Source of the DNA: a bacterium
GTDB taxonomy: Bacteria; Patescibacteriota; Minisyncoccia; Phycocordibacterales; Zambryskibacteraceae
Direction: 5' to 3'
Length of the DNA stretch: 51,165 nt
Assembly: GCA_030649135.1 (NCBI GenBank)
Contig: JAUSGI010000007.1
Coordinates: 1 to 51,165, forward strand
Below are positions 1 through 51,165 of the stretch, one piece after another. The position numbers and the translations under genes were made by a program. Each line of letters begins with the position of its first letter. Within the stretch, counting starts at the first letter, position 1. The notes beneath the pieces were generated by a model. It was given only the letters and a program-made list of their open reading frames with translations. It was not told where the DNA came from and made no database searches.

Positions 1-1466
<1,466 letters not shown>

Positions 1467-2531: not shown

Positions 2532-3093
2532 ATTTTAGCGAAGTTGGCGCCTTTTGGGGCAATTGCTTTAATAATTTCGAAAATTCTTTGTGCACCTTAT
2601 CAAGTTTCGGATTAATCACTATCTGGCAGTACGGGGCATTCTTATTATTGGCGTAGTAGTCGTGGTGATAATTTTCCGCCTCGTAAAATGTTTCGAGTGG
2701 CACAACTTCTGTCACTACCGGTGCTCCCACTTGATTAGAAGCATTGATTTCAGCAATAAATTTTTCCGCCTCCGCTTTCTGCGTTTCCGTGGTGTAAAAA
2801 ATAACCGAGCGGTATTGGGTGCCTATGTCGTTACCTTGTCTGTTGAGAGTCGTGGGGTCGTGACTAGCGAAGAAAATGGTTAGTAGAGTATGGTAAGAGA
2901 TCTTGTTCGGGTCGTATTCGATATAAATGACTTCGGCGTGCCCCGTTTTACCACTTGCGACTTGCAAGTAGGTTGGATGAGCCACAGTACCACCGGCATA
3001 ACCGGGCTTTACAGACGAGACCCCTTCAAGTGCCTTAAACACTGCCTCCGTACACCAGAAACACCCGCCGCCAAATACCGCTTTCTCACTCAT
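2506..3093 (-). CDS. msrA: Peptide methionine sulfoxide reductase MsrA
   Basis: GCFWC active-site motif near the N-terminus. Its 3' end overlaps the msrB start by 26 nt. Confidence 0.9.
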
Positions 3094-3350
3094 CGTTTCT
3101 TTAGAAATGTTTCTAAATCTGACTGCCCTTGTTTAAATTCATTTTCAATGTGGGAAAGTTCCGCTCTCAACTGGTCGGCTTCGACCTTCAATTTGGCCTG
3201 CTCGGATTCGTCTCTTTGTAATTCCGCCTTTTCCCTAGTGACTTTAGGCTCTTCGTTCCTCAACTTACGTTCAAGGTCTTCGAGTCTGTGCCTTTTGTCC
3301 TCCAAATTTCTTTTCAGGTCCTCCAACTGTTGCGCGGTTGTGATGGTCAT
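3090..3350 (-). CDS. Hypothetical coiled-coil protein (86 aa, charged heptads)
   Basis: ORF with ATGA overlap to msrA. Strongly Glu/Lys/Leu/Arg-rich and helical (LEDLKRNLEDKRHRLEDLERKLR). Confidence 0.5.
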   Translation of the reverse strand: MTITTAQQLEDLKRNLEDKRHRLEDLERKLRNEEPKVTREKAELQRDESEQAKLKVEADQLRAELSHIENEFKQGQSDLETFLKKR

Positions 3351-3444
3351 TTTTTATGGGTTATTTAAATAAGTTATCCTCGGCTATTCAAGACACCATC
3401 TTGAATTTGGCTCTTGAATTACTTAGGTTAATTCTAGCACTTTT

Positions 3445-3654
3445 CTACCTATTCTTGATTACTGCCTTTGTTTTGTCCACAACAACCGGATTTTTGATAA
3501 TTTTCTTTATAGACTTCAACGCTTTCTCCACTCCCTGCTTACTTTTATAAGTCTCCCCACTGGTCATGACCTTTTTATTATTCCCGGACTTAAAAGTGAG
3601 AAAAAACTCCCTATTTTTCGCCCTACCTATCTCAATTCTATTTTTACTTGCCAT
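3445..3654 (-). CDS. DUF1508/YegP-like small protein
   Basis: 69 aa with a pattern (FKSGNNKK...SGETYKSKQGVEKALKSIKK) that resembles the UPF0339/YegP repeat. Confidence 0.5.
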   Translation of the reverse strand: MASKNRIEIGRAKNREFFLTFKSGNNKKVMTSGETYKSKQGVEKALKSIKKIIKNPVVVDKTKAVIKNR

Positions 3655-3666
3655 AGTGTTTTTATA

Positions 3667-4146
3667 TTATTTGAAAAAGTTGAGCAGTCTACTAAAGAGT
3701 CCCATTTTCTTCATCGGCTTTGGTTGTTCACTTACTAAATTGTTTATTGGTGAACTCGAACCTGTCTCTATCTTTGGGTCAACAAGAGATTGCGATTTTC
3801 CTACAGGTATCTTTTTCACTTCCTTAATCGGAGCAGATTTGGTAGGTTTAGGTTGAGTAGTTTTTACACTAGGTATAACTTTTTGCTGAACTGGTTGAAT
3901 AATCTTAGGAACAATAACTTCAGGAATTGCTTCGGGGATATACGGGAATTCTATTATTTCTCCACACATTTTCATAGAAGAATAAGAGACGCTACTCTTT
4001 CGCCAGCCGTCGTTACAAATTACGCTCCCATCGCTGTCTGACCCCGCAGCACAACTTACTCCTCCGTGACCAGAACAAGCTCCACTTGCTGAAAATACGA
4101 GCACTGGAAAGAAAATTACCAAACTTAATATCAATATTTTTTTCAT
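3667..4146 (-). CDS. Secreted hypothetical protein (signal peptide, Cys-rich head, Pro/Lys-rich tail)
   Basis: N-terminal MKKILILSLVIFFPVLVFSASGA signal peptide and a 6-Cys segment. No recognisable domain. Confidence 0.5.
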   Translation of the reverse strand: MKKILILSLVIFFPVLVFSASGACSGHGGVSCAAGSDSDGSVICNDGWRKSSVSYSSMKMCGEIIEFPYIPEAIPEVIVPKIIQPVQQKVIPSVKTTQPKPTKSAPIKEVKKIPVGKSQSLVDPKIETGSSSPINNLVSEQPKPMKKMGLFSRLLNFFK

Positions 4147-4183
4147 ATCTTCTATAGGATATCATGGAATGACTAACTAGTGA

Positions 4184-4206
4184 CCGTCTGGTATGAAGTT
4201 GGAACC
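4184..4206. repeat. Direct repeat copy 1 (CCGTCTGGTATGAAGTTGGAACC)
   Basis: Near-identical 22-bp copy at 4933-4954. The two copies bracket CDS 4207-4917. Confidence 0.7.
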
Positions 4207-4917
4207 TTACTGTGAGACATTAGAAGGGGCTTTACCATCCTGTAAATCCTGAGCTCGTATTTGTTCGGCAAGCGACTTTCCTGTTGCCCCTTCAGCTATA
4301 TAAGACATTAACAGTAGTAACGATGTTGTATAGCCAAAAATTAAAGTGTGTATAGACTCGTCAAAGTTTTCTCTAGTACCATCATCCCTGTAGATAGTAC
4401 CATCTATCCTGTACTTACCATTTTTAACATAAACCATTAGATTGGGAGTTTTATGAGTTACTGAATCTCTTAATGATATGATATCCGTAAATAATTTACT
4501 ATTTAAATGAGTTTTGAATTTACTATTGAAACCCTTATATTTCTCCTTTTTAACTTGCTTTAGGAATTTATTGAAACTAAGTTCCTCAACTCCATATTGT
4601 TCTTTTAAAAACACGAGAAGGTAATCATAAACAGAACGAGCCAGAACTAAATATCCCTCAAACAAGGCTGCCAATATTTCATGATTAACATCATGTTCAT
4701 TATTTTTAATATGTTTACCTCCTGCCTTATACAAAATATCGCCTATTAATCCAACTCTAAATAACCGAAAGAAAAGTTGGGTTGATTTTTTGTCATTACG
4801 CTTACTAAGCACCTCTTTTACAAAATAATTTAAAGCTACAGCATGAAAAGCATATGATGATGGTTTATCGAAGTTGTATTTAAAATAGTTCTTTGTTAAA
4901 TCTAAACCAATGTTCAT
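4207..4917 (-). CDS. Hypothetical protein (236 aa), bracketed by 22-bp direct repeats
   Basis: Long ORF with no motif recognised. It is mostly helical and lies in the accessory islet. Confidence 0.55.
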   Translation of the reverse strand: MNIGLDLTKNYFKYNFDKPSSYAFHAVALNYFVKEVLSKRNDKKSTQLFFRLFRVGLIGDILYKAGGKHIKNNEHDVNHEILAALFEGYLVLARSVYDYLLVFLKEQYGVEELSFNKFLKQVKKEKYKGFNSKFKTHLNSKLFTDIISLRDSVTHKTPNLMVYVKNGKYRIDGTIYRDDGTRENFDESIHTLIFGYTTSLLLLMSYIAEGATGKSLAEQIRAQDLQDGKAPSNVSQ

Positions 4918-4932
4918 GACTTTATAATCTAG

Positions 4933-4954
4933 CCGTCTGGTGCGAAGTTGGAAC
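4933..4954. repeat. Direct repeat copy 2 (CCGTCTGGTGCGAAGTTGGAAC)
   Basis: 20 of 22 positions are identical to copy 1. It lies 15 nt upstream of the start codon at 4917. Confidence 0.7.
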
Positions 4955-5157
4955 TAAAATAATGCATAATACAAATGCCACATAAAGCTAGTGCGTGTTT
5001 GTTTAGAATTGACACACCTATCCCTTTCTATTAACTCACTCACCTCACTACACATTCCAACTTGGACTGCATAATGGTAATTTTCAAGTTTAACTATTAC
5101 TAGGGCAAACCAAATAATAATTATGGCTAAAGTAACGATAGTTATATTCTTTTTCAT
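4954..5157 (-). CDS. Small membrane protein (67 aa, N-terminal TM)
   Basis: IVTLAIIIIWFALVIV TM helix. It lies 12 nt downstream of the nucleotidyltransferase gene. Confidence 0.4.
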   Translation of the reverse strand: MKKNITIVTLAIIIIWFALVIVKLENYHYAVQVGMCSEVSELIERDRCVNSKQTRTSFMWHLYYALF

Positions 5158-5169
5158 ATCATTTATTGT

Positions 5170-24747: not shown

Positions 24748-26726
24748 TATTTCACCACTATATCATCTCCTTGAATAAACGCTGGGTCCGACGTCAGGCG
24801 GGTGGTCAAAGGAGGATTCGTGGTAGTCACCGTCTTGCCGGTCTGCGTATCTCGACCGGAAAGCGCGATACTTGTGACCAAACTCGGAGCTGTTCCCACC
24901 TGAATAATAGACGGGGTGAGCGCGATTTGGAAAGCCAGTTCTCTAGCGGCGGAAGAGAAACCGGTATCGGATGTTAACGTTCCCAAGTTCCAAGTGACCG
25001 TATTCGAAGCAGAGTCATAAGAAATATCATCACCGGTAAAACTCGATGCCCCCAGCCAGCTGACGCCCTGCCCCAGTTTGGCAGTAACTTTGGCATCCGC
25101 CAAGTCGCCTTGAGTATTACCAACACTAAAGATGGCGGTGTAAGTAGTTTTCTCCCCCACTTTGGGCGGGATGGGTCCTTCGTTAGAAAATGAGCCCAAG
25201 GAACGCAAAACTCTGGAAGAAAAATTGACTTGAGACGATATTCTCACGATACGAGTTTCTCTCACCACCACAGGTCTCTGGCCCACCGCACCAACCGGCA
25301 CGCCTGTAATCGAGACGTTAAGAGTAATGTCGTGCGTGCCTGCCGGCAAAGACAAACTGGGCAAAGAGGCGAACCTTAGGGTTACCCGCCCGTCTTCTCC
25401 GGGAGCAAGTTCTGCATTGCCAAGCGTGTTCGTTAAATTCCAAACAAACTTCTGGTTGACGGGGTCATAAATGCCATTATCGGCGGAAATGGATAATTTA
25501 TCTAAGGCCACGCCGGAGAGACTGACTTCAAGACGTGGCGCAAGCAGCCTATCCGGCAAGTTATTTCGAAACAAAATAGAGGCGGAAACGGCTCGGGCGA
25601 CCGGTGCTACATAAGTAGCCAAGTTTTCCCCGTTAAATAAAACATTTAAACCAATGGAAGGCCGGTCTACGGCAACGGTGTCCAATAGAGAGACGAGAGT
25701 AATTTTAAGATTCGGACTCGCGCTGTCTCCGTCTGACACACCGACATAGAACCTGAAGGTTCGTTCTTCCCTATCCTCCCCAAGCAACTGACCGCTAATA
25801 GAAATCGTTTTCTTGCTCCCAGGTGATAAATCACCAAGTACCCACATATTATTGTCGGCGACAGCTGCCGGTAGAGAATCAACAACGCTGTATCCGTAAG
25901 GATATTCCGCCTTCAAAACGACATTCTTTAAAACTTCCGTGGAATTCAAAGTAACCGAGACAACAGTGGTAAAAAGATCTCCGGAAGTGGTGGAATCCGG
26001 ACTTTCCACGGTAAGAGTCACGGGTGCGTTCCCTATAGCAATCTCAAATATTTTATCTTTGTAGAAGGTGGCATTCGAACCCTTAACTTTATATTCGACC
26101 GAAAATTTTATCTCTTTAACTTCCCCGGATGAGCCCAGAAGCGCCACCCGCACATTGCGCACAGTCTCGTCACCGGCTCCGATGACACCCAAATTATCTT
26201 TGGTATAGGTCAGAGACTCGGCAGTATTATCTGGATTGCGACTGCCGGGCGGGTATTGAATGGAGAGATTGGCAAACTCGAGGTCGGCGTTATTCGTATT
26301 GGAGATACTGACGCCCAGTTCCAATACTTCCCCAGCTGATATGGTGGCCGGACCCAGTACATTAATATTCACGTTCCTGGAAGAAATAAAATTAGCGCCC
26401 CCCACGAACACAAAAAGCGCCACTCCGATAGTGGCTATAAAAAATAAAAAGGCGGAAATGAAAACTTTTTTCATAAAAGGGTTGACCGGAGGAATGACGC
26501 GTTCATGCTTGAGCATTTCATCCAGTTCCGGAGTCTGCCACTTCTCCCCAACATCTGATGACTCAAACTCCTTAATCGGGCTACGCTTGTCCAAAGGGTC
26601 TCGATAACGCGTCCGTGAGTAGAGTGTGTCATTCAACCCTTCGATTTTGCTCTTGTCTTTCTCTTCCATATTATAAGTATAACTCAAAAAGTGGAGCTTG
26701 ATTGTTTGACTGATTATGTGCCACAA
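24747..26726 (-). CDS. Large membrane-anchored surface protein with repeated Ig-like beta domains
   Basis: An 85-aa cytoplasmic head, the TM VFISAFLFFIATIGVALFVFV, then ~550 aa of Thr/Ser/Val/Asn-rich beta repeats. Confidence 0.6.
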   Translation of the reverse strand: MWHIISQTIKLHFLSYTYNMEEKDKSKIEGLNDTLYSRTRYRDPLDKRSPIKEFESSDVGEKWQTPELDEMLKHERVIPPVNPFMKKVFISAFLFFIATIGVALFVFVGGANFISSRNVNINVLGPATISAGEVLELGVSISNTNNADLEFANLSIQYPPGSRNPDNTAESLTYTKDNLGVIGAGDETVRNVRVALLGSSGEVKEIKFSVEYKVKGSNATFYKDKIFEIAIGNAPVTLTVESPDSTTSGDLFTTVVSVTLNSTEVLKNVVLKAEYPYGYSVVDSLPAAVADNNMWVLGDLSPGSKKTISISGQLLGEDREERTFRFYVGVSDGDSASPNLKITLVSLLDTVAVDRPSIGLNVLFNGENLATYVAPVARAVSASILFRNNLPDRLLAPRLEVSLSGVALDKLSISADNGIYDPVNQKFVWNLTNTLGNAELAPGEDGRVTLRFASLPSLSLPAGTHDITLNVSITGVPVGAVGQRPVVVRETRIVRISSQVNFSSRVLRSLGSFSNEGPIPPKVGEKTTYTAIFSVGNTQGDLADAKVTAKLGQGVSWLGASSFTGDDISYDSASNTVTWNLGTLTSDTGFSSAARELAFQIALTPSIIQVGTAPSLVTSIALSGRDTQTGKTVTTTNPPLTTRLTSDPAFIQGDDIVVK

Positions 26727-26780
26727 TCAACTACAGATTTTCCCTAGATGAATCATGGGGAAAACAGATAGGGGGACAGG

Positions 26781-27131
26781 ATGCCCGACCAAGTCCAGCT
26801 TGACCGAGAGCTCAGAAGCAGTCTCATGGCCCGCGGACTCAAGTTCCTGGAAGACTTGCGCCTGAGCCGCACAGACGCAAGGCCCACCTCCCGTGAGTTC
26901 GAGGAGTGGCAAGATTCCGACACCGGACTTAAGCTGCTCGAGATGAGCTCAGCAACCATCAAGCAGATGATGGGAGCGCTCGAGCGGTTTCAGCACGGCG
27001 GCTACGGCATCTGCAACGAGTGCGGGGAAGAGATCAGCGAGGCCCGCCTGCGGGCCCTGCCGTTCGCAACTCGGTGCACGAGATGCCAGAACCAGTACGA
27101 GACTCCACGGCACGGAATCCTCTTCGCCTAA
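26781..27131 (+). CDS. TraR/DksA-family C4 zinc-finger protein
   Basis: C-terminal GICNECGEEISEARLRALPFATRCTRCQ is the canonical DksA/TraR CxxC-x17-CxxC finger. It lies in the GC-rich island. Confidence 0.8.
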   Translation: MPDQVQLDRELRSSLMARGLKFLEDLRLSRTDARPTSREFEEWQDSDTGLKLLEMSSATIKQMMGALERFQHGGYGICNECGEEISEARLRALPFATRCTRCQNQYETPRHGILFA

Positions 27132-27140
27132 CGCGTCCCA

Positions 27141-27176
27141 CGTGCCCCGGTAGCAGTACCGCCGGGGCACGTTTTT
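27141..27176 (+). terminator. Rho-independent terminator (cgtgccccgg...ccggggcacg + TTTTT)
   Basis: 10-bp perfect stem 10 nt after the traR/dksA stop. Confidence 0.8.
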
Positions 27177-27318
27177 AAATGTAAAACTTTTCATTCTAAA
27201 TCTTAATCTGGAATGCCAATAGATTACTTAAGTGTAAACGAAAAAGGCGCCCGATGTGAATCGAAGCGCCCATGACCTCCTTTCAGAGAGTCTTCCGCCT
27301 ACAGCGGAGTCAAAAAGT

Positions 27319-27867
27319 CTAGCTGCTAGAAACGACCTGGCGGCCCGAGGACCACCCGCTCGGGTCCTCGACGGAGTAGGCGTTGACAAGCCAGCCGCCG
27401 TCGTCGGCGCTCCAGCCCGCGTCCACGGGACAGAGGTTCCCATCCCTACCTCGAAGGTAGAAGACGAACCACTCCGTACTCCTCCGGTTATCGGCAAGGA
27501 ATGCCTTGAACCGGGAGGCTGAGATCTCGGCCTTGTCGCCGAGCTCCGCGAGGATCGGGGCGTCGAGGGCATCTTCTGTGAGCCTGTGAACCTTGAGTTC
27601 ACCTGCCTCCGTTGCCTCGACCCTGAGTCCCAGGAACTGGGACTCGAAGTTTTCCCCCATCCAGCGCACCCCGGCTTCCTCGAAATACTTCTTCGAGGTA
27701 GTGATTGCCGGCTGGGCGATCACCTTTACCATGCGGACCATGGCGAGAATCGTCTCGAAGGCGACCTTGCCCTGCCCGCCGATGAAGCGGAGGAAGTTGT
27801 CCCAGCCGCCCATGCGGTTGATGCAAGCTTCCGTCTGCCCAGCGGTTACATCATTGTACTTGCCCAT
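27319..27867 (-). CDS. Hypothetical protein with C-terminal C-type-lectin-like module, paralogous to the DGR target variable region
   Basis: GAGGAG RBS 7 nt before MGKYND. C-terminus ...GWSADDGGWLVNAYSVEDPSGWSSGRQVVSSS aligns with the DGR target tail DDGRWLCAY...P.YRW...VSQVSS. ~60% GC. Confidence 0.6.
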   Translation of the reverse strand: MGKYNDVTAGQTEACINRMGGWDNFLRFIGGQGKVAFETILAMVRMVKVIAQPAITTSKKYFEEAGVRWMGENFESQFLGLRVEATEAGELKVHRLTEDALDAPILAELGDKAEISASRFKAFLADNRRSTEWFVFYLRGRDGNLCPVDAGWSADDGGWLVNAYSVEDPSGWSSGRQVVSSS

Positions 27868-27939
27868 TAGAGTCTCCTCTCGGCTCAAAGCCGATGGTTT
27901 CCCTCTGCCCGAGGTTGTGGGGGCTTAGCAACACCATGT

Positions 27940-27991
27940 CGCCATAGCTTTGAATGTCCTAAGAAACCCTGGGAGACTCAAAGCTATGGCG
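27940..27991. repeat. 14-bp perfect inverted repeat (cgccatagctttga / tcaaagctatggcg) with 24-nt loop at the island boundary
   Basis: Seen directly at 27940-27953 and 27978-27991. It sits at the GC-rich to AT-rich transition upstream of the island gene and downstream of recO. Confidence 0.7.
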
Positions 27992-28059
27992 AATTTCTGC
28001 AACTAGTCCTATAAAAGAGCCTTTTATTTATCTTTCTTCATTATACACCTAAAGATATA

Positions 28060-28572
28060 CTATGTCAAGTGACTAGATTGCATGCCTTCATTTATGGCCT
28101 TGATTATAGCTTTTTTATCCAAATCCAAATCTGCTTCGTTGAGGTAGCCCAGATGAAAAAGAATTTGTGAGACTAGGCGGATTTCAAACATTTCATCGTC
28201 AGGATGTAGAAAAAGAACAGACTGCTCTAGCATATCAAATAGTTCCGGGTGCGGGTCTTCCCCCTGGACCAATTTTTCTATAAGAGACAGGGGCCTTGCA
28301 ATGCCGGACGAGCCAGAAATCTTTTGCAATAACTGTGCCGAAGTCAGCCGCCAATATTCTTTACCTTTCACAAAAGAAATGGACGAGAGCGAGAACGGTT
28401 CGAGATTGCCACGAAGCTTGGAAACTTCCTTGCGCACACCGGTAGCCATGGCACGCACCAAACCAAGGTCACGAGTCATAATGGTGTAAATCCTATCAGC
28501 TTCCCGCATCGGCCTTTCGGAAAGTACGATACCCTTGGTGGTGTAAATGTGATAAGACACCTTAATATTCAA
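28060..28572 (-). CDS. recO: DNA repair protein RecO (short form)
   Basis: N-terminal OB domain pattern (GIVL...READRIYTIMTRDLGLVRAMATGVRK) consistent with RecO. Confidence 0.7.
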   Translation of the reverse strand: MNIKVSYHIYTTKGIVLSERPMREADRIYTIMTRDLGLVRAMATGVRKEVSKLRGNLEPFSLSSISFVKGKEYWRLTSAQLLQKISGSSGIARPLSLIEKLVQGEDPHPELFDMLEQSVLFLHPDDEMFEIRLVSQILFHLGYLNEADLDLDKKAIIKAINEGMQSSHLT

Positions 28573-31500
28573 GTTCGATGTTAGTTGCTCTCTCTATTTC
28601 GGTCATATGTTTTTTGAAAAATTCTTCTTCACCCATCGGCGGAGTAAACTTCATCTTGTCGTTAGGTTTTAGTCCTTTCTCTTTACGCAGATCCTGAATA
28701 GCGCGTATTGCATCACGCACCTTCCCTTCTTCAAGAAGTTCGGAAGTGAGATTGGTATCGAGCTCTACCCCGCCAATATCTTTATGTATCACTTCTTTGA
28801 CATTTATTTCATCTTTAATTAATTCTATATACCCGGTATTCAGACCATTAATTCTGGCTTCCAGTTTTCGTAATGGCTGACGTACTTTTATATTTGCTTT
28901 TGAACGCGCCTCCAAAGCCAGGGACACAATTGTTCTTGTCTCTGACATATTCCTTAGAAGTTTTTTACCGGTATACCCCATGAGTATTACGTGGTACAAC
29001 CTCCTTCCACCCTCCGGCCATTTTTCAAGATGAATACTCAATGGATCTTTTTCTCTTCTTAATTTTTGATATAAATCTTCTGCAGTAAATGGAGCGAACG
29101 GTGCAAGAAGCATAGACAATTGTTTCAAGACAAAATACAGTGTCTGCTTAGCTTTTACATCGCCAGATTTTATTCTTTCTCTAGATCGCCTTAGGTACCA
29201 AGTTGAGAGATCGTCAATAAAATCGCGTATATTTCTTACTGGCTCAAGCAACTTATAGTCATCGAGATACCCTGTATTCTCCTCGATCAGATACGTTAAC
29301 CTTTCCACTACCCAATGATCGAGGATATTATCACTAACAGGTTTCCCTCTCGACTCTAAAGACCGATCTCGATACAATTCATAGAAAGAATAGACGTTGT
29401 CAAGCGTGTTAAGCATCTTTCTCTGCTCCTCAACTGTACGCTCATCGAAATTCTTGGACTCCCCAGGCTGGTTAACTGCGTACATCCATAGGCGAAGTGC
29501 ATCAATTCCGTATTTATCCATCATTTCCCACGGATCTACCACATTTCCGACAGACTTACTCATCTTCTTACCGTCTTTGTCGAGAAGATGCCCGAGACAA
29601 ACTACATTTTTATACGCCAGACCTCTTTCCATTAAAACTCCTATGGCGTGGAGTGTGTAGAACCACCCACGGGTTTGGTCTATCGCTTCAGAAATAAAAT
29701 CAGCAGGATAGAGAATATTTTGGGGGTCTTGAGCAAATGGCATTGCTCCTGAATCAAACCAGACATCCAGCACTTCTTTTACCCTTCTATATTCTTCACC
29801 ATCTTTAACCAGCATTATCTCATCTATGTAAGGCTTATGCAGATCCAGTTCAAAGTCTTCGTTGTGTGGCAACGGAGCAAAATCTAGTTTCCGCACTTCC
29901 CCGGTACGAGGCATATCTTCAGCAACAAACTTCAATTGATTTCCGCTAGCCACCTTCTCAAGCCGTGCAATCGGTTCGCCGTGAGAAATTATGAGAATAT
30001 TTTTATTTTTATATTTGCTTTCGATTTCGAACATAAATTCACCTACTCGGTGTTGTATTTGTGTGCCATCTTCATTGGGCCCAGTCTCTCGCAATCGTTC
30101 ATCCTGTATAAAATCTTTCGCGATAATTTCCGCTGTTTCGCGAGCGCGCAGAAAAGGCGAAGAGAAGATAAGGTCAAATTTCGTACCATTTATCTTTTCT
30201 GCTTCTTTTTTCCCCTTATCGGTCAAGTGATTATCCGGGTCCCCGACGAGGTCAAGAACGTTTTTGGCGTTACTTTCCGCTTCGCCATGCCGCATCACAA
30301 AATATTTGTTGCCACTAGTCTTCGTGTATTTCTTGAGAGTCTCGAGAGAGCCTACTACTATCCTTTGCGAACCATCGACGTTTTGCCAGATAGGTAGTGG
30401 CGTACCCCAGTAGCGCTCTCGTGAGATAGCCCAGTCTTTAACCTCTCGGAGCCATTCACCGAATCTACCTTCTCTGATATGCTCTGGTTCCCAATTAATC
30501 TTTTTATTCTCCTCTACAAGATTATCTCGCAATTCGGACATCCTTATGTACCACGAATCACGAGCGTAATATATGAGACGAGTTTTGCATCTCCAACAAA
30601 ATGGATATGAGTGAGTGTAGGATTCTTTATCGAGAAGAAGATTTCGATTCTGTAAATCTTTAAGAATCTCTATTGCTGTAGACTCTTCGACTACTGATTT
30701 CCCTGCAATAAATCCAGTTTCTGGCTTAAAGTACCCAGTCTCGTCGACCAAATGATGCTTGGGCAAACCTACTTTTGTACCAAGCACAAAATCATCTTGG
30801 CCGTACATAACAGCAGTATGAACTATGCCTGTGCCATCTTCCGCGGTGACGAAATCTGCCGCATAAACTTTGTGAGAATTTTCATTGCTAGGAGAGAATC
30901 CATAAAGCGGCTCATATTCTAGTCCAACCAAATCTTTTCCTAAAAATTCTTCTGGGTCTAAGCCAGGCCATTTATGCGCAAGTTTTTTTGCTACGATGTA
31001 AAATTCGCCAGCCCATTTGTACTTGACATATTCAATATCTTTATCTACCGCTAACGCAACATTGCCTGGAAGAGTCCAGGGAGTGGTGGTCCAAGCAACT
31101 AGATAGGTATTTTCTTGCCCAACGACTTTAAACTTAACGTAAAGCGAAATGTCTTTTACTTCCTGATATCCCTGCGCTAGTTCATGACTGGAAAGCGCTG
31201 TTCCGCAACGCGGACACCAGGGCAAAACCTTATAGTCCTTATAGAGTAATTTACGCTCCTCTACGTGCGCAAGAATCGACCACACTGACTCGATGTATGA
31301 ATTGTTATAGGTAAAATATGCGTCATCAAGATTCACCCAGTAACCAATGCGGTCGGTAAATTTAGCCCAGTCGCCGATATATTTCTGAACACTCGCCCTA
31401 CATGCCTTATTAAATTTAGCGATGCCGTATTTTTCAATTTCTTTTTTTGACTGAAGGCCCAGAGTTTTCTCAACCTCAAGCTCTACCGGTAGACCATGAG

Positions 31501-31747
31501 TATCCCAACCAGCTTTTCTCGGCACACGGAAGCCCCGCATAGTCTTATATCGAGGGATAGCGTCCTTAAAAGCACGCGCTTCGAGATGGTGTATGGCTGG
31601 TCGACCATTGGCTGTTGGCGGACCTTCGTAGAAGACAAAGTCACCTTTTGGAGATTTCTTCTCCAAAGTTTTCTCAAATATTTTGTGCTCTTTCCAGAAT
31701 TGGAGAATTTTCTCCTCTCTTTGAGCGCGTTCGGACTTCTCTCTCAT
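28562..31747 (-). CDS. ileS: Isoleucyl-tRNA synthetase carrying an inserted histidine-phosphatase (PGAM-like) domain
   Basis: GWDTHGLP, the CP1 editing region (WTTTPWTLPGN), EG-type DQTRGWFY and KMSKSVGNVVDP. About 150 aa between PLPIW and DLHKPYID (aa ~478-625, nt ~29875-30316) contain RHGE...SHGEPI, which is alien to IleRS. Confidence 0.85.
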   Translation of the reverse strand: MREKSERAQREEKILQFWKEHKIFEKTLEKKSPKGDFVFYEGPPTANGRPAIHHLEARAFKDAIPRYKTMRGFRVPRKAGWDTHGLPVELEVEKTLGLQSKKEIEKYGIAKFNKACRASVQKYIGDWAKFTDRIGYWVNLDDAYFTYNNSYIESVWSILAHVEERKLLYKDYKVLPWCPRCGTALSSHELAQGYQEVKDISLYVKFKVVGQENTYLVAWTTTPWTLPGNVALAVDKDIEYVKYKWAGEFYIVAKKLAHKWPGLDPEEFLGKDLVGLEYEPLYGFSPSNENSHKVYAADFVTAEDGTGIVHTAVMYGQDDFVLGTKVGLPKHHLVDETGYFKPETGFIAGKSVVEESTAIEILKDLQNRNLLLDKESYTHSYPFCWRCKTRLIYYARDSWYIRMSELRDNLVEENKKINWEPEHIREGRFGEWLREVKDWAISRERYWGTPLPIWQNVDGSQRIVVGSLETLKKYTKTSGNKYFVMRHGEAESNAKNVLDLVGDPDNHLTDKGKKEAEKINGTKFDLIFSSPFLRARETAEIIAKDFIQDERLRETGPNEDGTQIQHRVGEFMFEIESKYKNKNILIISHGEPIARLEKVASGNQLKFVAEDMPRTGEVRKLDFAPLPHNEDFELDLHKPYIDEIMLVKDGEEYRRVKEVLDVWFDSGAMPFAQDPQNILYPADFISEAIDQTRGWFYTLHAIGVLMERGLAYKNVVCLGHLLDKDGKKMSKSVGNVVDPWEMMDKYGIDALRLWMYAVNQPGESKNFDERTVEEQRKMLNTLDNVYSFYELYRDRSLESRGKPVSDNILDHWVVERLTYLIEENTGYLDDYKLLEPVRNIRDFIDDLSTWYLRRSRERIKSGDVKAKQTLYFVLKQLSMLLAPFAPFTAEDLYQKLRREKDPLSIHLEKWPEGGRRLYHVILMGYTGKKLLRNMSETRTIVSLALEARSKANIKVRQPLRKLEARINGLNTGYIELIKDEINVKEVIHKDIGGVELDTNLTSELLEEGKVRDAIRAIQDLRKEKGLKPNDKMKFTPPMGEEEFFKKHMTEIERATNIELEY

Positions 31748-48921: not shown

Positions 48922-49935
48922 TTAATTGGAAGATTTGGGCTTGGACGCTTTGTCGATAATCTTCTGTCGCAATTTCCAGCTGTTGCCATGGCTCATAAGA
49001 CCGAGATACGACTGCACCGTTTCTTCCTTTCCGTCCTTTGCCTTTATATTCCTAAACATCCTCTTTTTGGTTGTCGTCCTTAAGACTTGATGATCCGGAA
49101 AATGCACCCAGCCGAGAAAGTCGACACCCGAAGCGACAGTCTGTATGAAAATCTTATCCGGATGCATGGAGAGCTTGAGCTTGTTTCCTAAAAACTCCTG
49201 CATCGCCGGCAGAATGGTTTCAAGGTACGCCTTGTCCGTCGAAAGGACGGCAAAATCGTCAGCGTAACGCAGATAATATTTCGCTTTGAGGCGATGCTTC
49301 ATAAATTGGTCGAATTCGTTCATGTAAATATTTACCAGAAGCTGGGACGTTAGATTGCCGAGCGGGAGTCCGATGCCGACAGCGTTTGAATGAAAACTCC
49401 GAACGATGACAGATAAGAGATGGAGAATATCTTGATCGGGAATATATTTTGCAGATATGTCCAAGAGAATCGCGTGATCGATGTTTGCAAAAAACTTTCT
49501 GATATCGCATTTGAGCACCCATACCGTCCGAACGTTGTTCTCTGAAACAATGCCGATGAATTTTCTGAATCTGCTGAGAGCTCGATGCGTACCTTTTCCG
49601 TCTTGGCAGGAATTCGAGTCGGAGATAAACGTTTTTGCGAAAAATGGCGACAGTTGCCTATGCAATGCGTGATGTAAAAGCCGGTCTCGAACACTTGCTT
49701 TGTGGATGTCGCGCGGCTTAGGATCGGCGATCTTGAAATGCTGATACGCAGAATGGGTGTATGTTTTCGCCACAAGTTCGCGGTGAAGCGAGATAATGTT
49801 CGTCATCAGATTTCGCTCGAATTCTTGCACATCTTTGCGCGACCTTTTTCCGCGCACGAATTCTTTCCACGCTTCGAGGAGATTTTCGAGCGAAATGATA
49901 TGATTATATGTATGTTGAAATTGGATTCTGGACAT
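48922..49935 (-). CDS. Diversity-generating retroelement reverse transcriptase
   Basis: RT motifs 1-7 with YADDFAV. Motif 4 is IGLPLGNLTSQLL (GxxxSQ, DGR-specific, versus QGxxxSP in group II introns). The N-terminus resembles DGR RTs. Confidence 0.9.
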   Translation of the reverse strand: MSRIQFQHTYNHIISLENLLEAWKEFVRGKRSRKDVQEFERNLMTNIISLHRELVAKTYTHSAYQHFKIADPKPRDIHKASVRDRLLHHALHRQLSPFFAKTFISDSNSCQDGKGTHRALSRFRKFIGIVSENNVRTVWVLKCDIRKFFANIDHAILLDISAKYIPDQDILHLLSVIVRSFHSNAVGIGLPLGNLTSQLLVNIYMNEFDQFMKHRLKAKYYLRYADDFAVLSTDKAYLETILPAMQEFLGNKLKLSMHPDKIFIQTVASGVDFLGWVHFPDHQVLRTTTKKRMFRNIKAKDGKEETVQSYLGLMSHGNSWKLRQKIIDKASKPKSSN

Positions 49936-49967: not shown

Positions 49968-50330
49968 TTGCCAGTTTTAGGCAAAGTTAAGGAGTCGTAT
50001 CTTTTGTGGTACAAATTTTATCAGGACTTGCCCAAGGTGCATCGTCATTCTCTCGGCCAGCGCATAGACACATTGTTTGTCGAAGTGATAGAAGCGATAT
50101 CGGCCGCCAGTTTTCTCTCGCCTACAGAGAAACATCCGTATGTTCGTCTCGCGATCAAGAAAGCGGACACCCTCCGTGTACTTCTTTTGGTACTCTGGGA
50201 AACAAAATCTCTCGACGATAAGAAATACATCGCTCTTTCCATAAAGTTGGACGAGGCCGGCAAAATGCTCGGCGGTTGGAACGGCCAGCTCGCAAAACAA
50301 AACTCTCCAGCCAAAGCCGGAGAGAAATGA
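49968..50330 (+). CDS. avd: Avd-like accessory variability determinant (four-helix-bundle / 23S-rRNA-IVS family)
   Basis: WYKFYQDLPKVHRHSLGQRIDTLFVEVIEAI...LDEAGKMLGGW fits the bAvd/PF05635 pattern. AAGGAG RBS 9 nt before an in-frame TTG at 50004. It lies on the opposite strand to the RT and TR sense. Confidence 0.7.
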   Translation: MPVLGKVKESYLLWYKFYQDLPKVHRHSLGQRIDTLFVEVIEAISAASFLSPTEKHPYVRLAIKKADTLRVLLLVLWETKSLDDKKYIALSIKLDEAGKMLGGWNGQLAKQNSPAKAGEK

Positions 50331-50336
50331 AGAGAG

Positions 50337-50462
50337 TTGCGACACGGCGAACGCGAACCCGTTGTCACGATTCCACCTGTTGTCAGGCCTGTCGTTGTAC
50401 GCATTAAGCCAGCGACCATCGTCATTACGGTTCGCATTCAGCAAGTTCGGATCGCCGTCGGA
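50337..50462 (-). repeat. DGR template repeat (TR), sense on minus strand
   Basis: 126 bp, ~84% identical to VR at 50809-50934. Minus-sense reading has 8 AAY (Asn) codons. 14 of 20 mismatches to VR fall on TR adenines. Confidence 0.8.
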
Positions 50463-50790: not shown

Positions 50791-51165
50791 TTAGTGTTGA
50801 GAACTGACTTGCGACACCGCGAACGCGAACCCGTTGCCACAACCCCACCTGTAGTCGGGCCCGCCGCCGTACGCGCAAAGCCAGCGACCATCGTCGTCAC
50901 GGTCCGCGATCAGCAAGCTCGGATCGCCGTCGGAGTCGTTGATGGGTTCGTGCATGGCAACGATGTACCACAGCCCCATCGCTTCGATCTCCTTGTCCGT
51001 GAACTTCTCACGAATGAGGCAGGCCAGTTCGGCGTTCGGCTTCGAGAGCTTGCGCTTGTCGGCCTCGGCGCGAATCTTCTTCGTGATCCGGTCGTTGTCC
51101 TCGAAGAGCATGCCCTTGAGAACGGCGACTTCGGTCGTCACGCCGTTGGTCGGCTTGAAGTCCGG
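50791..51165 (-). CDS. DGR target protein with C-terminal C-type-lectin-like variable module (5' end beyond window)
   Basis: ORF is open to the window edge. C-terminal ...DRDDDGRWLCAYGGGPDYRWGCGNGFAFAVSQVSSQH is encoded by the VR. ~58% GC. Confidence 0.75.
   Translation of the reverse strand, partial: PDFKPTNGVTTEVAVLKGMLFEDNDRITKKIRAEADKRKLSKPNAELACLIREKFTDKEIEAMGLWYIVAMHEPINDSDGDPSLLIADRDDDGRWLCAYGGGPDYRWGCGNGFAFAVSQVSSQH
50809..50934 (-). repeat. DGR variable repeat (VR) at 3' end of target gene
   Basis: Aligns to TR. Asn codons of TR are replaced by Ile/Asp/Cys/Gly/Tyr codons. A shared GC-rich 3' block gggttcgcgttcgcSgtgtcgcaa is IMH-like. Confidence 0.8.

Follow-up and report, generated by a model that had tools for sequence, protein, structure and literature searches.

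The stretch analysed here, hereafter the window, is 51,165 nt from a Zambryskibacteria-like Patescibacteria genome. Between recO and a DUF11/CLIPPER surface-protein gene, it contains a GC-rich segment of 1.3 kb made of two convergent genes: a TraR/DksA-family zinc-finger gene on the forward strand (TraR below), and a 182-aa open reading frame (ORF) on the reverse strand. Each is followed by a terminator consisting of a hairpin and a T-run, and no other ORF with a domain is present in the segment. We find that this segment is a composite of two unrelated things, lying in a slot that varies among relatives. One is probably an orphaned target gene of a diversity-generating retroelement (DGR), left over from a cassette that occupied this recombination-prone site; the other is a resident DksA/TraR-like gene. 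The orphaned target is an ordinary case of a known kind, and a new member of it.

A first-pass annotation, made from the sequence alone, had described the segment as an island bounded by a 14-bp inverted repeat, and had hesitated between a second, orphaned DGR target and a leftover of the donor that had brought in the DGR found at the end of the window. The former reading is borne out, the 182-aa protein sharing 58-71% identity with proteins of other Patescibacteria for which a variable repeat (VR) can be demonstrated in the gene, followed by a template repeat (TR), Avd and a reverse transcriptase (RT).

The 182-aa gene and its DGR family

The 182-aa ORF, reported on the strand opposite to TraR, is indeed present, and it is intact (Table 1). 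A search among 5.8 billion proteins, which by design misses relatives sharing no exact 5-residue word, retrieved 119 homologues, most of them 179-200 aa long and the closest being those just mentioned. They come from metagenome-assembled genomes of Zambryskibacteria, Parcubacteria and Paceibacteria. In L001/L002 and L004 (loci with the family, or with the leader described below, are numbered L001-L118), the 3' end of the homologue is repeated downstream over 115-123 nt, at 80-86% identity and approximately 380 nt away from start to start. A TR is found 3' of the family gene in L001/L010, L004/L011, L014, L017, L019, L036, L037, L050 and L115. Beyond it, where the contig is long enough, come Avd, encoded on the other strand, and an RT that shares 56-62% identity with that of the DGR which the window itself carries at 49-51 kb. 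In the five VR/TR pairs compared (L001, L004, L019, L037, L050), mismatches fall predominantly at TR adenines (13-22 of 15-25), and in the five pairs measured the TR lies 155-271 nt downstream of the target stop codon, at 256-271 nt in four of them. The family alignment reveals a C-terminal scaffold, LWAVxAxWxxxxGGWxVxAxSVxxPxxWxAGxxVVSRN, hypervariable at x, which the C-terminus of the window protein fits. By homology, the protein can thus be assigned to a bona fide DGR target family. One member of it, in L017 (6001-6497), appears frameshifted, its similarity being split into 128 aa and 36 aa, beside intact TR, Avd and RT; this target looks like a pseudogene lying next to a complete DGR.

The family shares several traits with the DGR targets described in Patescibacteria, or candidate phyla radiation (CPR) bacteria (DGR clade 2, Roux et al. 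2021, PMC8144416; CPR set and UVR classes, Wu et al. 2018, PMC5758913). These are also small proteins with a C-terminal VR, in which a conserved Trp/Gly/Pro scaffold alternates with Asn-templated variable positions, and they have no recognisable Pfam domain, signal peptide or transmembrane segment. Their target-TR-Avd-RT cassette is that of the relatives of the 182-aa gene, whereas the copy in the window has neither TR, Avd nor RT. The family could not be mapped to any named UVR class. A VR at the extreme C-terminus is also found in the variable proteins of C-type-lectin fold Mtd, TvpA, TaqVP and archaeal AvpA, to which the 182-aa protein has, however, no sequence similarity; nor does it match the FGE-sulfatase or DUF1566 Pfam families, and a Foldseek comparison with the PDB gave nothing significant. 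The product of the gene would be a small binding protein, probably C-type-lectin-like, now in a single fixed version; both this binding function and present-day expression of the gene are what we infer.

The last 38 codons of the gene form a VR, which encodes LCPVDAGWSADDGGWLVNAYSVEDPSGWSSGRQVVSSS and has GGTCGTTTCTAGCAGC as its 3' end. The TRs of L001 and L004 match it over 27328-27435 and 27352-27435, at 72-76% identity (E 3e-12 and 1e-10). When compared to the consensus of five TRs of the family, which come from other species, the VR differs at 16 of the 26 invariant A columns, versus 5 of the 50 invariant non-A columns (Fisher p 4e-6). Such an adenine-biased pattern reads as the footprint of past adenine mutagenesis. 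The earlier statement that this C-terminus is not adenine-templated is therefore correct with respect to the TR of the window, and not with respect to the TRs of its own family. VRs still linked to a cassette differ at 1 of the 50 non-A columns; the additional scaffold changes of the window VR include LWAV to LCPV and SRN to SSS.

What follows the VR in relatives is missing from the window. No TR-like copy of 27300-27480 was detected in it (blastn, word size 7), and RT and Avd queries (tblastn) matched it at 48.9-50.3 kb only, with no match at the 182-aa locus. TraR occupies the place that Avd and RT have in relatives. In the BPP-1 system, a GC-rich hairpin downstream of the VR, with a stem of 7-10 bp, is required for efficient DGR homing (PMC3240598). 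Five cassette-linked homologues have such a hairpin, of 7-9 perfect bp with a loop of 3-4 nt, and the window has one at the same offset, weakened to 5 perfect bp around a 5-nt loop. Several solitary copies of the family have none. Homology to the intact cassettes covers this hairpin and the terminator, goes on for about 30 nt into the VR-to-TR spacer (AATCTATTGGCATTCCAGATTAAGATTTAG), and ends at the TraR terminator. In L001 and L004, the same spacer block runs on into the TR. By eye, a similar block, AATCTGCTGGC...CAAGGTTT, precedes the TR of the complete DGR that a relative has by its recO gene (L120, see below), and also occurs in the spacer of the window's own DGR. We infer that the end of homology marks the breakpoint of a deletion of TR, Avd and RT, to which the TraR terminator is adjacent.

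These observations can be assembled as follows. The front half of a cassette would have been kept, with promoter, leader of approximately 165 nt, the 182-aa gene with its VR, hairpin, terminator and some 30 nt of spacer, and the TR, Avd and RT that follow in relatives would have been deleted. Without a cognate TR, the VR would be a frozen record of earlier adenine mutagenesis, no longer rewritable, and the frozen gene would still have its promoter, its leader, its ribosome-binding site and its terminator, all intact. The solid elements of the analysis are the family membership, the cassette layout in relatives, the absence of a TR in the window, the adenine footprint, the states of the site and the covariation in the leader.

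Several considerations weigh against a truncated cassette. The view was over 51 kb of the genome, and a cognate TR and RT may be present elsewhere and act in trans. The five scaffold differences could be specific to the lineage, and shared with an unseen TR, rather than due to drift after the loss. Decay is confined to the hairpin and the missing TR, with ORF, promoter, leader and ribosome-binding site all intact. Most of the family is solitary, and solitary copies could be normal trans targets or paralogues never diversified. As for the order of events, a deletion from an ancestral recO-DGR-TraR-surface arrangement may have taken place, or else independent insertions.

The main rival follows from the first of these points: the gene would be a live trans target of a second DGR, with TR and RT located outside the window. 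Its intact expression signals and reading frame agree with this, the adenine-biased VR testifies to DGR action at some time, and for other DGRs there are documented cases of targets that are non-adjacent or remote (PMC5758913). Moreover, among the 26 family loci with at least 2.5 kb of downstream sequence, 17 have no RT there. However, in all five pairs measured the TR is close downstream of the target stop codon, and the window retains the start of the spacer, then broken off, as expected for a truncated cassette and not for a stand-alone target. The homing hairpin is weakened, there are five non-A differences from the TR consensus as against one in linked VRs, the sole TR of the window does not match, and a Logan contig from the same sample has an identical VR. 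We regard a trans target as improbable. It is far less likely still that the gene was never linked to a DGR at this place, being a stand-alone promoter-leader-gene paralogue with a C-terminus varying by ordinary divergence. Such a unit does recur in many unrelated contexts, for instance in L005, between a pseudouridine synthase gene and rplS, and solitary copies are the majority. But ordinary divergence leaves unexplained the concentration of differences at adenine columns, the spacer remnant past the terminator, homologous to the VR-to-TR spacer of intact cassettes, and the DGR cassettes or remnants that relatives carry at exactly the recO site. The truncated cassette is the reading we keep.

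As to the DGR at the end of the window, its TR has a best ungapped identity of 41% with the VR of the 182-aa gene, and a different 3' end; this visible DGR therefore cannot rewrite the gene, which, judging from the repeats, is not one of its targets. Remote DGR targets, such as the TvpA paralogues of Treponema denticola (PMC5758913), are likewise located at kilobases from an RT, the 182-aa gene being 21 kb from the only visible one. Their VRs, however, differ from the TR at adenines only, in contrast with the low identity seen here. The proposal of a remnant of the donor that delivered the DGR is not supported: the target of the DGR at 49-51 kb is from another family, and the TR there does not match. 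The segment is more readily seen as what remains of a separate cassette at the recO site, as in L120 and L024.

The two targets are nevertheless related. The first-pass annotation had called the gene a diverged paralogue of the DGR module, on the basis of a similarity in the last 30 residues and the underlying DNA. This similarity is not significant when tested directly (BLASTP E 0.3; blastn 19 nt at 84%, E 3.7), and a family profile against the single sequence gave E 0.088, likewise not significant. When the profiles of both families were compared by hhalign, using for the window-end target an alignment of 44 sequences from a family with 1375 cluster representatives at E <=1e-3, a match was obtained with a probability of 84.8% and E 6.6e-6. 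It covers 184 columns, that is whole proteins and not the C-terminus alone. The homology thus stands, though not where it had been seen, and the two families appear to be remote homologues over their whole length. A 5' leader found in both accompanies the profile match, as support for a common superfamily.

In the window's own DGR, 14 of the 23 TR/VR mismatches are at TR adenines, and the RT and Avd ORFs are intact. At four non-adenine mismatches, a TR codon AAT faces NNC in the VR, as would result from a drift of C to T in the non-coding TR after the last homing. This DGR may no longer be active.

TraR and the occupancy of the recO site

The site between recO and the surface-protein gene was compared in relatives having RecO proteins 75-78% identical to that of the window. 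In L023 it is empty, the two genes being 46 bp apart. L119 has TraR alone, in the same orientation and followed by a homologous hairpin terminator (GCCCCGGCGG...GCCGGGGC). In L120 a complete DGR is present (3113-5160), with a target of 202 aa from a third, unrelated and GC-rich family. In L024/L025 the site contains a homologue, 267 aa long, of the window-end DGR target (E 3e-6), together with an IS200-like gene and, directly by the surface gene, 63-74 aa that remain of an RT C-terminus. Finally, in L021/L022 the same promoter overlaps the recO stop codon and is followed by a different gene, after which the contig ends. The slot is therefore variable, occupied by a full DGR, a decayed DGR, TraR alone, or nothing. 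By eye, the genes found at this site in L024, L120 and L021 have no leader core of the 182-aa family.

Two of these loci deserve further description. The junction between TR and Avd in L120, TCTCTTCATTTCTCTC, is identical to that of the window's DGR; its target matches neither of the families studied here, and its leader is different. In L024, an IS200-like Y1 transposase gene (2739-3302) lies inside the decayed DGR, bracketed by repeated CTCGCAAGGACGGTCCT hairpin-like elements (flanks 2540-2620 and 3310-3360), with the RT remnant at 3364-3582.

The second gene of the segment was correctly recognised as a TraR/DksA C4 zinc-finger gene with its own terminator. Its product matches PF01258 with E 4.9e-15 and 55.7 bits (cut-off 24.9), and contains the four Cys, CNEC...CTRC. 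The C4 zinc finger (CxxC...CxxC) is shared with the RNA-polymerase-binding proteins DksA, TraR and YteA, and the N-terminal region also matches DksA/YteA profiles, over residues 28-108. It differs from this family by its scores, which are below all curated NCBIfam cut-offs, the equivalog/subfamily test for DksA proper or for plasmid/phage TraR (bits over cut-off: YteA 60/134, DksA_like 49/105, C4_traR_proteo 47/60, dksA 45/116), and by its striking GC richness at third codon positions (GC3) in a low-GC genome. The best of these partial matches are to the YteA and DksA-like families.

In the protein search described above, TraR had at most 58% identity over approximately half its length to anything besides its syntenic counterpart in L119. 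The latter has 121 aa (1973-2338) and is 35% identical (E 1e-15), with a GC3 of 0.75 in a locus of 0.48 GC. While RecO is 76% identical between the window and L119, TraR has fallen to 35%, and both copies are GC3-rich; for a regulator, this divergence seems unusually fast.

The first-pass annotation had seen in TraR a family typical of phages and conjugative elements. Phage and plasmid proteins match it at approximately 35% identity, those of phages over the zinc-finger half only; in three plasmid records, the match extends over at least 80% of its length. No specific link of TraR with phages or plasmids emerges. It was found in none of the other loci with the target family or the leader (L001-L118). 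Because L119 holds TraR alone at the same site, without a DGR target, the gene is a resident of the recO/surface slot which does not travel with the target, and is neither DGR nor phage cargo.

Promoter and structured 5' leader of the 182-aa gene

The functional unit of the 182-aa gene extends to 28068, into recO. A sigma-70-type promoter has its -35 box within the last two sense codons of recO (Table 1). It overlaps the recO stop codon likewise in L024, L021 and L120, and the same architecture is found upstream of family members elsewhere. Between this promoter and the start codon lies a structured leader RNA, in the order P1, P2, invariant core, P4 and ribosome-binding site. The core, CCCACAACCUCGGGCAGAGGGA in the window, has the consensus CCCAYAACCUCGGGYAGAGGGAA, and contains helix P3 (CCUC/GAGG).

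The 14-bp inverted repeat reported at 27940-27991 is helix P1. It is real and perfect, and by our own rough estimate a hairpin of this kind is expected by chance approximately 0.01 times in 51 kb. It does not, however, mark the edge of an island: as a single hairpin in the leader, interior to the 182-aa unit, it is not a terminal pair bounding anything. In 26 sequences, the paired fraction of P1 cells is 93%, and drops to 36-44% if the partner is slid; 8 of 17 pairs have changed on both sides. The covariation score was 0.406, against 0.155 in shuffles, and none of 500 shuffles was as high. A G-U is found at one position in 20 of the 26 sequences; such pairs favour an RNA of the sense strand over a DNA cruciform or a transposon end. 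P3 and P4 were recovered by RNAalifold, with compensatory changes at 4 of the 5 P4 pairs and a change from UA to AU in P3 of two sequences. As to P2, 76% of the leaders have a stem of 5 bp or more, versus 29% of shuffles, and 61 distinct arm pairs were counted.

In leaders having P1, the 5' arm of P2 lies, by eye, within the 3' arm of P1, for example GGCG in the window and L013, GGCU in L014, L033 and L050, or GUGG in L015. Such an overlap would make the two helices mutually exclusive, and it is kept across differing sequences. A switch could be at work, or P2 could be spurious in this class of leaders. Another kind of switch, in which CCUC of P3 would pair with the ribosome-binding site, was weakened as a candidate, because L012 and L016 compensate P3 as CCAC/GUGG and keep a site of GGAGG type.

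The core pattern was found at 93 metagenome loci. Across the collected loci, 102 of its 111 occurrences are followed, at a distance of 26-50 nt (26-38 in nearly all), by a superfamily ORF, defined as one matching the 182-aa family and/or the window-end target family. The leader is kept nearly base for base where the proteins have diverged to approximately 15% identity. No Rfam 15 family was matched, scores being those of a chance hairpin (9-19 bits, for gathering thresholds of 48-126). Structured RNAs are known at DGR loci, and the leader resembles in this respect the RT-associated motifs RT-1 to RT-19 (Weinberg et al. 2017, PMC5737381). These adjoin RT genes and were proposed to act in reverse transcription, RT-10 lying between TR and RT in BPP-1 (PMC5737381), whereas the leader is in the 5' untranslated region of the target gene, with or without a nearby RT.

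The position of the leader by the ribosome-binding site suggests translational control. It could be an undescribed class of 5' leader RNA, placed before a superfamily of Patescibacteria DGR targets, which as a riboswitch or as a protein- or RNA-responsive switch would gate expression of genes marked by their own GC3 excess, not shared by the RT and Avd of the window. We put this forward tentatively, as possible rather than probable. No description of the shared leader or of the GC3 excess was met in the literature searched, two DGR survey papers not having been searched for them.

Table 1. Positions, in the window, of the features discussed in the text. P1 to P4 are helices of the leader RNA.
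Feature	Position	Strand	Details
TraR/DksA-family C4 zinc-finger gene	26781..27131	+	116 aa, GC 0.61; PF01258
TraR intrinsic terminator	27139..27176	+	GCCCCGG...CCGGGGC hairpin and T-run; read from sequence
Remainder of VR-to-TR spacer	27196..27225	-	Alignment with L001, L004
Intrinsic terminator of the 182-aa gene	27241..27272	-	Hairpin and T-run, from sequence; nearly base for base in L005
GC hairpin flanking VR	27294..27308	-	TCCGC-TGTAG-GCGGA, 13 nt past stop codon
182-aa DGR variable-protein gene	27319..27867	-	GC 0.62; Patescibacteria family
Fossil VR	27322..27435	-	TR matches
Structured 5' leader RNA	27868..28033	-	Approximately 165 nt; start placed from the -10 box
Shine-Dalgarno	27873-27879		GAGGAGA; in leader
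P4	27890-27894 with 27880-27884		In leader
Invariant core	27900-27921		In leader
P3	27911-27914 with 27902-27905		In leader core
P2 hairpin	~27926-27943		In leader
P1	27940-27953 with 27978-27991		In leader; arms separated by 24 nt
Promoter, sigma-70 type	28040..28068	-	TTGACA 28063-28068, 17 nt, TATAAT 28040-28045; read from sequence
recO	28060-28572	-	Flank of the segment
RT	48922-49935	-	Window DGR
bAvd	49968-50330	+	Window DGR
TR	50329-50462		Window DGR
VR	50801-50934		Window DGR; in target gene running off the window end (50791-51165)

Base composition and horizontal transfer

The jump in base composition noted in the first-pass annotation is real. Measured in 300-nt windows, GC is 0.54-0.62 across approximately 26.8-27.95 kb, and 0.39-0.46 on either side; from 26781 to 27995 it is 0.584, for 0.446 in the remaining window. 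The surface-protein gene on its border does not start at 26726 with 659 aa, as annotated, but at ATG 26669, with 640 aa. Three of the 52 ORFs of the window stand out by their GC3: the window-end DGR target, said at first to be similarly GC-rich and in fact the highest of all (0.83), the 182-aa gene (0.81) and TraR (0.78). After these three, the richest ORF has 0.57, and the median is 0.47.

The contrast in composition does not come from a chimeric assembly. Two overlapping Logan contigs (SRR13727527) are 100% identical to the window, each containing host genes syntenic with relatives, and together with the flanking synteny they rule this out. The Logan assembly breaks within the 182-aa gene, the two contigs overlapping by 26 nt (27660-27685); this suggests that another genome or a paralogue in the sample shares part of the gene.

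An island from a GC-rich donor, phage or conjugative element, having brought TraR and the DGR module together, would account for GC and GC3 being raised sharply in exactly these two genes; TraR/DksA zinc fingers do occur in phages and plasmids, and L023 offers an empty site. Yet no integrase, transposase, tRNA or flanking repeat pair is present in the segment, the window contains no tRNA, and the sole inverted repeat is the RNA stem of the leader. TraR is found alone, and GC-rich, in L119, and never with the target family in L001-L118. The leader pattern had no match in 2.9 million viral contigs, the 182-aa protein had no phage match, and the phage and plasmid relatives of TraR are as distant as described above. 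Nor is GC richness evidence of a foreign origin. The target family belongs to Patescibacteria, and its genes are GC-rich in nearly all hosts examined. For 69 distinct genes following the leader motif, the median GC is 0.562 and the median GC3 0.707, with an overall GC of 0.414 in the flanks, and in 50 of 55 loci the gene is richer than its flanks by more than 0.05 GC. The RT and Avd of the window DGR have a host-like GC3 (0.54), and in L004 the downstream region holding them is AT-rich. The arrival of TraR and the target together from a GC-rich donor is thus largely refuted, and we consider it highly unlikely.

A depletion of adenines over the whole gene, through DGR activity, was also considered as the origin of the GC richness, and rejected. 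Outside the VR, third positions of the 182-aa gene have 0.105 A and 0.112 T, and with A and T equally depleted the bias is not a by-product of adenine mutagenesis. The excess is specific to the gene: target genes have a GC3 of approximately 0.7-0.8 in genomes of about 0.4 overall GC, where host genes of the window have 0.40-0.57. TraR shares it.

Two observations concern other parts of the window. It starts within a bacterial 23S rRNA gene (1-1466, reverse strand; model positions 1-1309 of 2925). The isoleucyl-tRNA synthetase gene (28562-31747, reverse strand, 1061 aa) has a PF00300 histidine-phosphatase domain inserted between the tRNA-synt_1 segments, a layout also annotated in the relatives L008, L021, L023 and L120.

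For the segment itself, a story of horizontal transfer is replaced by a documented one, of which the leader RNA and the GC3 anomaly are the more interesting by-products. GC3-rich targets call for caution before GC islands in such genomes are read as foreign DNA. The states of the recO slot form a natural series for the study of DGR loss, and of the fate of a frozen variable protein. Some 100 DGR target genes, from two remotely related families, are preceded by the leader. If it proves regulatory, no control of expression would have been described before it for DGR variable proteins of the candidate phyla radiation, and it would offer a handle on their function.

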